From contig DATMBG010000042.1 of assembly GCA_035559535.1 (NCBI GenBank), positions 1 to 64,000 on the forward strand: a DNA stretch of 64,000 nucleotides, given 5' to 3'. This document shows positions 41,584-49,025 of the stretch, piece after piece. Every line of letters begins with the position of its first letter. Positions within the stretch are counted from its first letter, which is position 1. The notes under the pieces are model-generated. The model was given only the letters and a program-made list of their open reading frames with translations. It was not told the DNA's origin and searched no databases. The DNA is from Candidatus Limnocylindrales bacterium (GTDB lineage: Bacteria > Moduliflexota > Moduliflexia > Moduliflexales > JAUQPW01). A program made the position numbers and the translations under genes.

Positions 41584-41611
41584 TAACCATTCGCCTGCTT
41601 TTAGGATTTCT
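41584..41611 (+). promoter_or_regulatory. Candidate ECF sigma promoter, copy 1, at the head of the metal island
   Basis: TAACCATT-N11-AGGATTTCT, repeated with identical spacing at 42507-42534. Confidence 0.6.
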
Positions 41612-41711
41612 TTAAATGAAAGGGAGAAAGATGGGGGTTTAATAAAGTGACCGATGAAAAACCCATATCTTGCGTAAAACCTTTTTAATTTTAAGGAAGG
41701 AGGTTGAGGAT

Positions 41712-41768
41712 ATGCTCCGCAAACGATGGATGCTCCGCGCGGTTGCACGTTGCCGCGAGGGTTGTTAA
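41712..41768 (+). CDS. Candidate 18-aa leader peptide MLRKRWMLRAVARCREGC
   Basis: AGGAGG SD 8 nt upstream; C-terminal CxxxC; embedded in a long nested inverted-repeat region. Confidence 0.5.
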   Translation: MLRKRWMLRAVARCREGC

Positions 41769-41916
41769 CCTGGGTCCTGGGTATGACGTTAAACTGCCCA
41801 GAAGAAGATAAAGGACCCAAACCAGATCGGTGAAGGGGTTTTTATGGCAAACGCGAGCAAGACGACCGGAGATTTAATTTGGAGCGAAGGATATCTGGGA
41901 GTCTAAACGTCAGGAA

Positions 41917-42348
41917 ATGTCAAAGGCCCTTTTGAAAAAAATGGGAATTCTAGGGACCTATTTTTCTACCACTTTTGCCCTGGGTTGCTGCGGATTTGGT
42001 CCGTTTCTTTATCTGGTGTCAGGGCTTTCGGCTCTAGGTCTGGGGTTCTTGGCTAATTTGTCGTTACCGATTCTGTATACCTCCTTGGGAATGACGGTAG
42101 TCGGGCTTTTGATCTCCTATCGCCATCATCGCCATCCTTTACCCTTCATCTTAGGTCTGGTTGGCTCCGGTATGATTCTCTATCCTTTCCATGAAGCCCT
42201 GGATGTCTGGATTTTCCGGATTTTTTTCTCTACAGGCCTGGCTCTGTTAACCCTGGGGGTTATTTGGGACTTGATAAATCCCAGGAGATGGCTGCATAAA
42301 GGATTGAGACAAGGAGAAGGCTGGACCCCTTCCCTACTACGAAGGTAG
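41917..42348 (+). CDS. MerC-like mercury transporter
   Basis: Four TM segments, Cys pair in TM1 (LGCCG), SYRHHRHPLPFILG loop. Confidence 0.7.
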   Translation: MSKALLKKMGILGTYFSTTFALGCCGFGPFLYLVSGLSALGLGFLANLSLPILYTSLGMTVVGLLISYRHHRHPLPFILGLVGSGMILYPFHEALDVWIFRIFFSTGLALLTLGVIWDLINPRRWLHKGLRQGEGWTPSLLRR

Positions 42349-42506: not shown

Positions 42507-42534
42507 TAACCATTTTCATGTTTTAAGGATTTCT
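42507..42534 (+). promoter_or_regulatory. Candidate ECF sigma promoter, copy 2, directly upstream of the ECF gene
   Basis: TAACCATT-N11-AGGATTTCT ending 31 nt before the sigma ATG. Confidence 0.6.
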
Positions 42535-42565
42535 ATTTACAAAGTAGGTAAAGCCATAGGGGATC

Positions 42566-43150
42566 ATGGGGTATTCGTTTAATAAAATGACCGATGAAGA
42601 GCTCATGGCTCAAGTTCAGAGGGGGGATCAGGCTGCCTTTGAGGAATTATTCAAACGCTACGATCGAAAAATCTTCAATTACTTCCTTCGTTACCTGGGA
42701 GATGAAGAGTTGGCTAAAGACCTTTTTCAAGAAACCTTCCTCCGGGTGTTTCAATTCAGCAAGTCCTATAAGCCGACCACTCACAGTGGACGTTCCTCTT
42801 CTTTTGCAGCCTGGCTCTATACCGTTGCCCGGAATGTGTATAGAAAACAATGGGGACGAGAACCGGTTGAGGGGCGTATGGGAGAGTCCACGTGGGAGAT
42901 GTTAGAAGAAGTTCCAACCCCTAACGCCACGCCTCAGCAGGCAAGGGCCGATCAGGAATTGGTGGAAAAGATCAAACAGGCCCTGGACGCCCTTCCTGAA
43001 AGCCAGCGGGAGGTGGTGATCCTTCATAAGTATCAGGGACTCAGTTATCCTCAAATCGCTCAAGTCCTGGGATGCTCGATAAGTTCTGTGAAGCAAAGGG
43101 CTTTCAGAGCCTATCAGAGCCTCAGGCAGCAATTAGCCGAATATGCCTAA
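42566..43150 (+). CDS. ECF RNA polymerase sigma factor
   Basis: TDEELM, GDQAAFEEL, DLFQETFL, FAAWLYTVARN, LPESQREVV..GLSYPQIA. Confidence 0.93.
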   Translation: MGYSFNKMTDEELMAQVQRGDQAAFEELFKRYDRKIFNYFLRYLGDEELAKDLFQETFLRVFQFSKSYKPTTHSGRSSSFAAWLYTVARNVYRKQWGREPVEGRMGESTWEMLEEVPTPNATPQQARADQELVEKIKQALDALPESQREVVILHKYQGLSYPQIAQVLGCSISSVKQRAFRAYQSLRQQLAEYA

Positions 43151-45157: not shown

Positions 45158-45210
45158 GGGGTAGGGCGTTGGCCCGTTGGCCGGCAAATACCCAAAAAGG
45201 GGGTGTTCCC

Positions 45211-45735
45211 ATGAAAGATTTAAAAAAAATTTTATTAAGCCTTTTATTAACCTTTACTCTCATAGCTGCCTTCCTTCCTAAGGCAACTGTTGCCGAAATT
45301 GAAAAGGCTGTTATTAAAGTCAAGGGAACTTTGAGGTGTGTATTCTGAGCTTATGGGATTGACAAATCCGTGGGACGCCTGGAAGGCGTCAAGAAATCTG
45401 AGACCGATTGGAAAGCCGGTTTAACCGTGGTTACCTTCAAGGAAGGGGCCTCGTTGGATCCCAATCAACTGGCAAAAGCCATGGACGCAGCCGGATTTGG
45501 AGCGGATGAGATTACCCTTATCGCCAGGGGAAGCCTGACCGAAGAGAAAGGCTATCCGGCCTTTAAGGTCAGTGGCAGTAATCAAATTTTTCTGCTGGCA
45601 GAGAACGAAGTCCTCAACCAACTTAAAGCCTTGGGCTCCGGGAAAGAAGCAACAATCACAGCCAAAGTGGAGATGAAAGAAGAGGGGACTCCATTTACCC
45701 TGATCCTTGAAAAGGTTGAGTCGCCTACCCTGTAG
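45211..45735 (+). CDS. Exported HMA domain protein; candidate selenoprotein (CVFU, U46)
   Basis: ATG 45211 with signal peptide reads ...VKGTLRCVF*AYGIDKSVGRLEGV; TGA 45346-45348 is in frame with ORF 45370-45735 and aligns with Cys in in-window paralog 58613 (PYCAYGLEK). Confidence 0.85.
45349..45390 (+). promoter_or_regulatory. Candidate SECIS hairpin(s)
   Basis: GGATT-GACA-AATCC, then perfect GACGCCT-GGA-AGGCGTC after the UGA. Confidence 0.5.
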
Positions 45736-47827: not shown

Positions 47828-48436
47828 ATGAAAAGTTTTAACCTTTTTTCAACCCTTCGACCAGCCTGTCCTGAGCGAAGCCGAAGGGCTCAGGACGCAG
47901 CCTGGCTGAGTATAGCTCTAACGCTTTTGATCTCGCTGTTTTCTTTACACCCAAGTTCGGTTTATGCTGAGGACCTTCGGAAAGTGACCATCAAGGTAGG
48001 TTGGATGCTCTGTGAAAAGTGACCTCCGGCGGTGAAAGCAGCTTTGGAGAAGCTGGAAGGTGTAAAAAAAGTTGAGGTCAGTCTGGAGAAGGCTTCAGCT
48101 TATGTGGAGTATGAGGCTAGAAAGGTCACTCCGGATCAGATGGTAGCGGCAGTGAACCAGGCGGGATATATGGCGTTTCTTCCTCCCAAGGATCTGGTGG
48201 AGATCACGTTAGCCATCGAAGGTCTCAAGGGTCCTGAGGATGAGCTGAAAATCAAACCGGCCCTGGAGAAGGTGGATGGGATCAGGAAGGCTTTGGTGTA
48301 TACAAAGGAAAAGGAGGTCTATGTGGAATATATGAAAAATCAGATTACCCTTCAACGGATCACTGAAGAGATCTCGAAACTGGGCTATAAGGTGATCCTG
48401 CCTTCTGTTGAAGGGAAAGAAAGGTGCCAAAGATAA
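47828..48436 (+). CDS. Exported MerP-like tandem HMA protein; candidate selenoprotein (CEKU, U65)
   Basis: ORFs 47828-48022 and 48032-48436 are in frame; WMLCEK*PPAVKAALEKLEGVKKVEVSLEKA aligns with paralog 44324 GMVCEACPPKIKKALEGLDGVKKVEVSLEKA. Confidence 0.9.
48023..48055 (+). promoter_or_regulatory. Candidate SECIS hairpin
   Basis: CTCCGG..GAAA..TTGGAG stem-loop, or the alternative CAGCTT-TGGAG-AAGCTG. Confidence 0.45.
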
Positions 48437-48785: not shown

Positions 48786-49025
48786 GTGACGTCTAAAAAA
48801 GTCATTGTCTATAGTTCCACCGGTTGAGCCGCTTGTAAGCAGACGAAAGAGTTTCTTTCGCAAAAAGGGGTTGCGTTCACGGACATTAACGTTAGCGAGA
48901 ATCCGGAAGCTCTGGATGAAATGGTTCAGAAGGCTGGAGGAACCATGGCAACGCCTACGGTCCTCATCGGGGATGAGGTGGTCATAGGATTTAATCCCAA
49001 ACGATTGATGGAGCTTTTGGCTTAG
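48786..49025 (+). CDS. Glutaredoxin/NrdH-like protein; candidate selenoprotein (UAAC, U14); missing from the ORF track
   Basis: AAGGAGG SD, GTG start, MTSKKVIVYSSTG*AACKQTKEFLSQKGVAFTDINV...ATPTVLIGDEVVIGFNP; TGA 48825-48827. Confidence 0.9.
48844..48860 (+). promoter_or_regulatory. Candidate SECIS hairpin of the glutaredoxin
   Basis: Perfect CGAAAGA-GTT-TCTTTCG; loop G is 23 nt after the UGA. Confidence 0.55.

Follow-up and report, generated by a model that had tools for sequence, protein, structure and literature searches.

Coremin (xrRNA-C), a proposed H-type pseudoknot, is a fold of eukaryotic RNA viruses. According to the accessible parts of the respective reports, its resistance to Xrn1 requires a YG..AD loop together with a second hairpin, and scanning ribosomes stall at it (PMC10520033); a Watson-Crick variant stimulates -1 frameshifting without the second hairpin (PMC10321173), and a flaviviral xrRNA blocks RNase J1 (PMC5760640). 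Bacteria are not mentioned in the accessible parts of two papers on coremin (PMC10321173 and PMC6546385), and those of the class 3 xrRNA paper (PMC12397905) cover neither coremin nor phages. In the CutF-cutO system of Rhodobacter capsulatus, a Cys-motif ORF precedes metal-detoxification genes and its translation is proposed to control an RNA structure; CutF is an exported protein with a Sec signal, and its proline-rich tail, which causes stalling, opens a stem-loop shielding the Shine-Dalgarno (SD) sequence (PMC9973294, accessible part). In mycobacteria, ribosome reading of polycysteine short ORFs controls RNA folding; these ORFs are leaderless, contain Cys tracts and lie before cysteine-metabolism loci (10.1101/834739, accessible part).

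The element described here consists of a two-cysteine mini-ORF and a predicted pseudoknot in the window, by which we mean the whole 64,000-nt stretch of DNA analysed (Table 1). As with CutF, a Cys-motif ORF stands before metal-detoxification genes and its translation is proposed to control an RNA structure. Unlike CutF, the peptide has 18 aa (16-29 in its family) with neither a Sec signal nor a proline-rich tail, and it is followed by a pseudoknot and often then by a terminator; a CutF-type SD-shielding stem-loop is possible for the HMBD scar of this lineage (see below), and no such pairing was seen family-wide. The proposed control of RNA folding by ribosomes reading a Cys ORF is shared with the mycobacterial system, whereas the ORF here is led and contains two Cys and conserved non-Cys residues.

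The pseudoknot shares with coremin the hp1 stem GUC/GAC, whose three pairs are nearly invariant here, and the spacer (AAA, CU; start UUAAACU), of which AAA is kept in the pseudoknots found through the peptide. A fourth stem-1 pair is formed in 129 of the 157 viral copies and is G-G in the window. In contrast, the coremin loop rule YGAD / YG(N)nAD is broken: the 8-nt loop reads CYGRGYAN and forms five Watson-Crick pairs with the 3' strand, its second base being U or C in 157/157 viral copies, where the search pattern imposed it, and likewise in the peptide-found copies. The second hairpin, obligatory in coremin, is absent in the window and not enriched in two sets of copies (18/56 against 14.4+-2.7 in shuffles; 22/151 against 21.4+-3.6). 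Since the loop rule is broken and the second hairpin is not enriched, the fold is coremin-like rather than a member of coremin, and it occurs in bacterial and phage DNA genomes, coupled in the former to a peptide ORF, instead of in eukaryotic RNA viruses. It also differs from xrRNA-WCC, which has G as the first loop base and three pairs starting from the spacer C, whereas here C comes first and five pairs start one base later. The GUCCY-hairpin (Weinberg 2010; GUC, perfect hairpin, CY) was set aside as a different element on the alignment rows in its supplement; in the parts of that supplement examined, the motif strings were not found as a pseudoknot element. No description of the peptide or of a bacterial pseudoknot of this kind was found in the literature searched, to which the Weinberg 2017 supplement (PMC5737381) and subscription papers did not belong.

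Table 1. Positions of the features in the window and the evidence on which each is placed
Feature	Position	Strand	Evidence or remark
Promoter-like motif TAACC[AC]TT-N12-GGATTTCT, candidate ECF promoter (inferred)	41584..41611	+	second copy 42507-42534 before ECF sigma gene
Truncated duplicate of sigma gene 5' end (42577-42606), remnant	41637..41666	+	30 nt at 87% (blastn); G001 has an altered start codon
Shine-Dalgarno AGGAGG of the mini-ORF	41698..41703	+	sequence; 8 nt before ATG 41712
18-codon two-cysteine mini-ORF, family M[KR]R[FYW]x[IL][PR]xxA[HR]CxxG[CS]	41712..41768	+	codon differences, family alignment, profile matches
Predicted 26-nt H-type pseudoknot	41774..41799	+	covariation in viral, mixed and cellular copies
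20-nt lineage-specific segment	41800..41819	+	missing in G001 and X6
Scar of deleted two-HMBD (PF19335-like) gene	41832..41877	+	SD with start codon at 41844, the gene's first eight codons and then its last bases
merC-like gene, first intact gene behind the element	41917..42348	+	PF03203 E 2.1e-7

The mini-ORF and its peptide family

The initial annotation had described an AGGAGG SD followed by an 18-aa ORF with a CxxxC motif, and both are present in the sequence as claimed: the mini-ORF reads MLRKRWMLRAVARCREGC-TAA, and its motif is CREGC. The region was present in one of 40 other genomes, G001, of the same genus; L022 is a second ortholog and the sole true one among 24 metagenome matches to an 18-mer, the other 23 being rejected as chance. 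Both retain the 18-codon ORF with an identical stop. Against G001, the SD region (41691-41711) shows 0 differences in 21 nt, and the 19 codons of the mini-ORF show 0, 1 and 5 differences at positions 1, 2 and 3, compared with 11-29% at the four-fold sites of neighbouring genes. The ORF changes listed for the sequencing runs X3, X5 and X6 are all synonymous, the table for X6 covering part of its 13 differences; no RNA dataset was found among the runs listed as carrying the locus. A 16-column profile of the family matches the source genome once, at the mini-ORF (E 6.5e-7). Judged by its strong SD and the mostly synonymous changes in relatives, the predicted 18-codon ORF is real and under selection at the protein level.

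The first distant relative was a 119-nt contig of another organism in run X3, which matches 41767-41799 and carries a homologous peptide upstream. A 21-nt pattern taken from the matched stretch was found in 16 of 401 genomes (reversed control, 4), and the 14 non-genus matches at two mismatches comprised eight with a homologous ORF in the same register, one with the RNA motif alone and five chance matches. A wider pattern was found in 18/151 and 35/121 genomes of two phyla, with no matches for the control. The 61 cellular loci scored, which leave out one at a contig end, duplicates and six matches without a locus, contain the family peptide in one register in 57 cases. Exactly two Cys lie within the last seven codons in 55/56 loci, spelled CxxxC, CC or CxxC, and SD and start were identified in equally many (55/56). 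The profile itself matches 23/401 mixed genomes and 48/121 genomes of one phylum, and outside the genus 21/399 mixed genomes, about 5%; these counts are tallies rather than tests, related genomes not being independent. A further 27 loci (14 + 13) were found through the peptide alone, one of the pseudoknot-less ones lying inside a 762-aa frame and possibly a chance match. No NCBIfam model matched the five family peptides tested, a plasmid search returned one chance match, and searches of the phyla around G119 and G095 returned the known locus only (1/9 and 1/3 genomes). By these comparisons, the mini-ORF is a member of a widespread, uncatalogued family of predicted two-cysteine mini-peptides; its conservation in homologous loci, which had been proposed as a check, extends far outside mer loci. 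Even if the function preferred below is wrong, this is an unannotated gene family in about 5% of a mixed genome sample.

The composition of the family bears on whether the cysteines matter as codons or as residues. If the element were a cysteine-availability attenuator, a shortage of Cys-tRNA, as under Hg or oxidative stress, would make ribosomes wait at the Cys codons, the pseudoknot would be left folded and the peptide sequence would matter little. Two Cys codons stand just before the structure, and the mycobacterial polycysteine ORFs are a precedent (10.1101/834739, accessible part). However, there are two Cys rather than a tract, and protein-level conservation includes Arg, aromatic, Pro/Arg, Ala, His and Gly positions, with synonymous codons used freely for the conserved residues. 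Cys occupies both CxxxC positions in 35/53 unique cores, and in 18/53 a codon for Ser, Ala or His stands at the 8-nt position; in addition, no cysteine-synthesis gene was found among the 70 neighbours scanned. An attenuator of this kind is thus unlikely.

A predicted pseudoknot at a fixed distance behind the peptide

Stem 1 of the predicted pseudoknot pairs GUC (41774-76) with GAC (41785-87), and stem 2 pairs GGGUA (41779-83) with UGCCC (41795-99), with UUAAAC as the A-rich loop. The structure begins 8 nt past the last-Cys codon and 5 nt past the stop of the mini-ORF. This 8-nt spacing from the last-Cys codon position is exact in 57 of the 61 pattern-found loci and holds also where the stop precedes the spacer or the pseudoknot has indels. 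Recoding pseudoknots meet the ribosome at a distance matching this spacing. Among the loci found through the peptide, the pseudoknot stands at 8 nt in 17/27 (11/14 + 6/13) and is missing in 10/27; a plain strong hairpin begins at the same 8 nt in two of these ten (L319 and L333), and no strong hairpin begins there in the other eight. In cellular peptide loci with a pseudoknot, the stop lies at most 5 nt before the pseudoknot, or later.

Pairing is maintained through base changes. At positions left free in the search pattern, the viral copies show AU 95, GC 58, GU 3 and AC 1 at pair 7/25 and CG 96, UG 48, UA 9 and CA 4 at pair 9/23, while stem 1 has a fourth pair, likewise free, that occurs as CG 60, UG 29, UA 28 and GC 12; covariation was also seen in 66 mixed copies. 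In 25 aligned cellular loci, three pairs change on both sides and 0/500 shuffles reach the covariation score, with the caveat that a slide by +2 scores equally high and that the rows were pattern-selected. The least biased case is L336, which was found through the peptide and has compensated changes in both stems. Covariation, another check suggested for the originally proposed rod, was found in the 26-nt pseudoknot, whereas the rod is not conserved in orthologs. According to these models, the conserved RNA is the covarying 26-nt H-type pseudoknot and not the rod.

Two recoding schemes were considered. The pseudoknot contains an in-frame UGA, and its read-through as selenocysteine was rejected, since the base in question is U, A, C or G across copies; for -1 frameshifting, no slippery heptamer was seen by eye at the Gly/Cys codons. 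Apart from the family, locus L043 has the pseudoknot without the family peptide, behind a 79-aa ORF that contains NPCNPC repeats and whose stop lies 10 nt before the pseudoknot. In L310 and L334, from different lineages, a pseudoknot-less peptide precedes homologous small membrane-type ORFs with a CxYCxxHW motif.

The 20-nt segment directly behind the pseudoknot contains AGGACCCA, which may pair either with the stem 1 side (41771-78) or with the SD region of the HMBD remnant (duplex -13.6 kcal/mol; alternative folds -21.4 vs -23.0). As modelled, it could switch between these two partners, stem 1 on one side and the SD of the deleted gene on the other, in this lineage only.

The proposed rod and the scar of a deleted gene

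The initial annotation had proposed that some 190 nt around the ORF can form a nested rod of seven arm pairs. All seven exist as strings, whereas the pair TGGGTCCT/AGGACCCA lies outside the minimum free energy (MFE) structure, and TGGGTCCT shares 2 nt with CTGGGTA. The 199-nt fold has an MFE of -63.6 kcal/mol and a z of -1.81, with 9/200 shuffles as good, and 4/25 control windows elsewhere in the 64 kb have a lower z. For the corresponding span, z is -0.64 in L022; in G001, where the span extends over 377 nt, it is +0.28. The sole conserved arm pair, CTGGGTA/TGCCCAG, is stem 2 of the pseudoknot. An Rfam search, which had been named as a test, gave no match at gathering score in the window; locally there was none at E<=10 over the element (two chance matches), in 20 loci the motif itself had no match at E<=1, and the covariance model of STAXI (RF01728) was not matched.

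The 3' half of the proposed rod has a different origin. G001 has about 190 nt more than the window at this point, and two frames of it weakly match HMBD (E about 1e-3). These extra pieces match an intact 62-aa two-HMBD protein, P0003, which was found among 1.84 billion protein representatives, at E 4e-15 and 6e-07; a word-index protein search with the G001 HMBD piece gave no match. Because P0003 begins at the position of ATG 41844, the stretch 41832-41877 is the scar of a separate, deleted gene, and this scar makes up the 3' half of the rod. The comparison indicates that the gene originally next after the element is this small two-HMBD gene and not merC. The start codon of the HMBD gene is lost in G001, X3 and X5. 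As a separate observation, the two-HMBD gene is broken differently in G001 (L002 1291-1475) and X6 and deleted in the window, L022, X3 and X5; decay of this gene, which lies immediately after the pseudoknot, has recurred.

These results bear on two further readings of the locus. A rod-shaped non-coding RNA or attenuator of about 190 nt, as initially proposed for merC, has in its favour that the arms exist and that the outer helices have high pair probability in the source genome alone. Its z values in three genomes, its span across a deletion junction that is missing in G001, the lack of an Rfam match, a 3' half formed by a pseudogene scar and a next gene that was not originally merC make it extremely improbable. 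The 18 codons could also be a dead remnant, for example a frameshifted start of the HMBD gene, in a region that is a patchwork of remnants (the duplicated sigma start and the HMBD scar). The frameshifted-start version was rejected, since P0003 shows the gene's own start at the 41844 position, downstream of the ORF; with selection at the protein level and a wide family in addition, a dead remnant is hardly credible.

Phage copies of the pseudoknot

Among the 157 unique viral copies, none has the family peptide (two loose flags are not members), and L113, the one viral match to the peptide codon pattern, is without a pseudoknot. After de-clustering into 108 groups, a stop codon lies 6-8 nt before the pseudoknot in 34 and 4-5 nt before it in 2; in the rest it lies inside the pseudoknot (3) or further off (47), or none was found (22). 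The next ATG is mostly 20-33 nt downstream, with no such pattern on the opposite strand. Phage stops (6-8 nt before) and peptide stops (<=5 nt before) thus form complementary patterns on either side of the ribosome footprint. Read-through of the phage stops was rejected, since 6-, 7- and 8-nt spacers each occur commonly, which leaves no fixed frame.

The fold and the phage arrangement also relate to the possibility that the pseudoknot is a bacterial xrRNA which blocks 5'-3' decay by RNase J and is gated by translation of the peptide. Stem 1 and the UUAAACU spacer are as in coremin, flaviviral xrRNA blocks RNase J1 (PMC5760640, accessible part), the source genome has RNase J, and the next phage ATG mostly follows the pseudoknot at 20-33 nt. 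Against this, only 4 of 15 other carriers, each with a genome 95-100% complete, were found to have RNase J (TIGR00649), a result that speaks against a general 5'-exonuclease block; moreover, the second hairpin is not enriched and the loop breaks the YG..AD rule. We regard this reading as distinctly improbable.

A few kb at one viral locus contain 11 loose pseudoknot copies, and 25 other loci have two or three. A pistol ribozyme (above gathering score; L061 1668-1729) and a RAGATH-5-like RNA (L058 1273-1325) lie near phage copies.

Neighbouring genes of the family

The next ORF lies on the same strand in 29/61 loci and on the opposite strand in 31/61, as assigned by a mechanical ORF pick with at least four visible errors. 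The description of the element as a mer-linked 5' leader therefore needs to be narrowed: the peptide is conserved, whereas the element is neither mer-specific nor always a leader. A strong, terminator-like hairpin follows the element in at least 35/61 loci, by a finder that missed several visible hairpins; general antiterminator pairing between hairpin and pseudoknot was not found, 7/35 hairpins reaching p<=0.05, which is weak.

Of 169 candidate neighbours, 70 were scanned, including 26 upstream genes. ArsR stands directly upstream in 9 of these 26, all in one phylum, and other neighbours related to thiol or metal stress are thiol peroxidase, nitroreductase, MsrAB and ferritin; unrelated same-strand neighbours (PilZ, peptidase M28, SurE and UxaC) occur too. 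The copies behind ArsR resemble SmtB-SmtA-type ArsR/metallothionein pairs, in which a small Cys peptide lies behind ArsR/SmtB, within this one phylum. They differ from that type in having two Cys only, 16-29 aa, a fixed RNA structure and no NCBIfam match.

Such arrangements suggest that the peptide itself could be the product. As a free dithiol mini-peptide, it would bind Hg(II), As(III) or Cu(I) or buffer thiols, and the element would be a small stress gene of its own whose pseudoknot caps or paces a short mRNA, as it may behind phage stops. Often the element is alone or final in its transcript and is accompanied by a terminator-like hairpin and a convergent gene; an overlap with the stop of the upstream gene is seen in several copies (ArsR in L048, L244 and L267), the SD is strong, two Cys are always present, and 10/27 peptide-found loci do without the pseudoknot. 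The stand-alone position and the pseudoknot-less copies make a free chelator a close rival. However, it leaves the indel-free 8-nt spacing unexplained, most ORFs run into the supposed cap, and the tail after Gly varies freely in both length and sequence, like that of leader peptides. On balance, we consider a free chelator possible, if doubtful.

Proposed mechanism

The peptide ORF and the pseudoknot at a fixed 8 nt can be regarded as a two-part module, and the reading that we tentatively prefer, at somewhat under an even chance, is that of a ribosome-read sensor of thiol-binding metals or thiol stress, for example Hg(II). The pseudoknot would be at the mRNA entry while the Gly and last-Cys codons are decoded, so that the ribosome may pause. 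During the pause, the A[HR]C-x-x-G-C end of the nascent peptide would adjoin the peptidyl-transferase centre, and a soft metal or an oxidant acting on the two thiols could turn the pause into arrest. At an arrested ribosome the pseudoknot would stay folded, whereas normal reading to the stop would melt it. The folded pseudoknot may then alter what becomes of the transcript: its stability, its processing or how accessible the next ribosome-binding site is. In the mer island, the transcript would continue into the lost HMBD gene and merC. The sequences themselves give the conservation of the ORF, its two Cys, the covariation of the structure and its constant spacing; the functional steps, namely translation, pausing, ligand and output, we infer.

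The fixed spacing, kept even over a non-coding spacer, the hairpin at the same point in two of the ten loci lacking the pseudoknot and the complementary stops favour a structure acting on the ribosome as it translates the peptide, the two thiols being the part that senses. The lean of the neighbours towards thiol and metal stress (ArsR, peroxidase, MsrAB and the mer island) and the ability of the related coremin fold to stall scanning ribosomes and to stimulate -1 frameshifting also speak for the sensor. On the other hand, an opposite-strand next gene and a terminator-like hairpin often leave no downstream gene to switch, and the pseudoknot-less copies (10/27), the unrelated neighbours and the missing arrest motif, neither a RAPP-type nor a proline-rich one being present in the family peptides, count against it. 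The metal-responsive leader peptide and the tiny metal-binding peptide of the initial annotation both survive as predictions, the peptide being conserved beyond mer loci.

If the sensor is real, soft metals or thiol stress would be added to the ligands that nascent peptides recognise in the cytoplasm, the coremin fold would extend from eukaryotic viruses to bacteria and phages, and leader- or arrest-peptide control would be built on a coremin-like fold. In its widest form, the proposal is that a coremin-type pseudoknot, whose fold is known only from eukaryotic RNA viruses, serves many bacterial lineages as a ribosome roadblock, and that the nascent two-Cys peptide senses mercury, arsenite or thiol oxidation in the exit tunnel. 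This sensing would be cytoplasmic and independent of a transcription factor, and in the window the sensor would stand at the head of a selenoprotein-rich mer island, while phages would reuse the fold behind stops without the peptide; we put this forward as speculative and consider it rather doubtful. The module is about 90 nt in size and thus directly testable.

The mer island

Downstream of the element, the order is HMBD scar, merC, sigma, anti-sigma, merF, HMA, merE and merT. No canonical SD was found for merC, in agreement with the weak SD noted initially, and an alignment search of genome contigs with MerC gave G001 as the single match. Both copies of the promoter-like motif are retained in G001 and L022, and three other one-mismatch matches occur in the 5.6-Mb genome. 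The first promoter region of the island (41584-41666) duplicates the upstream region and first codons of the ECF sigma gene (42507-42606). In L022 (1157-1897), the island begins beside a divergent ECF sigma/anti-sigma-like pair instead of an endonuclease IV-like gene, and this different flank indicates that the island has moved. In G001, an ORF behind merA and a glucoamylase-like gene (L005 2600-3253) presumably encodes an organomercurial lyase-like protein.

Elsewhere in the family, a gene 25-50 nt behind the element (L037 1547-2344 and L104 944-1450) is split after a TPG motif and is a candidate selenoprotein gene; its product, without a Pfam match at 1e-12, is one that we take to resemble a reductase-B-type protein. 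In the island itself, three genes (45169-45735, 47828-48436 and 48786-49025) have an in-frame TGA at a Cys-like site, all kept in G001; they show two HMA-type CxxU motifs and a glutaredoxin-like UxxC, and the genome has tRNA-Sec.
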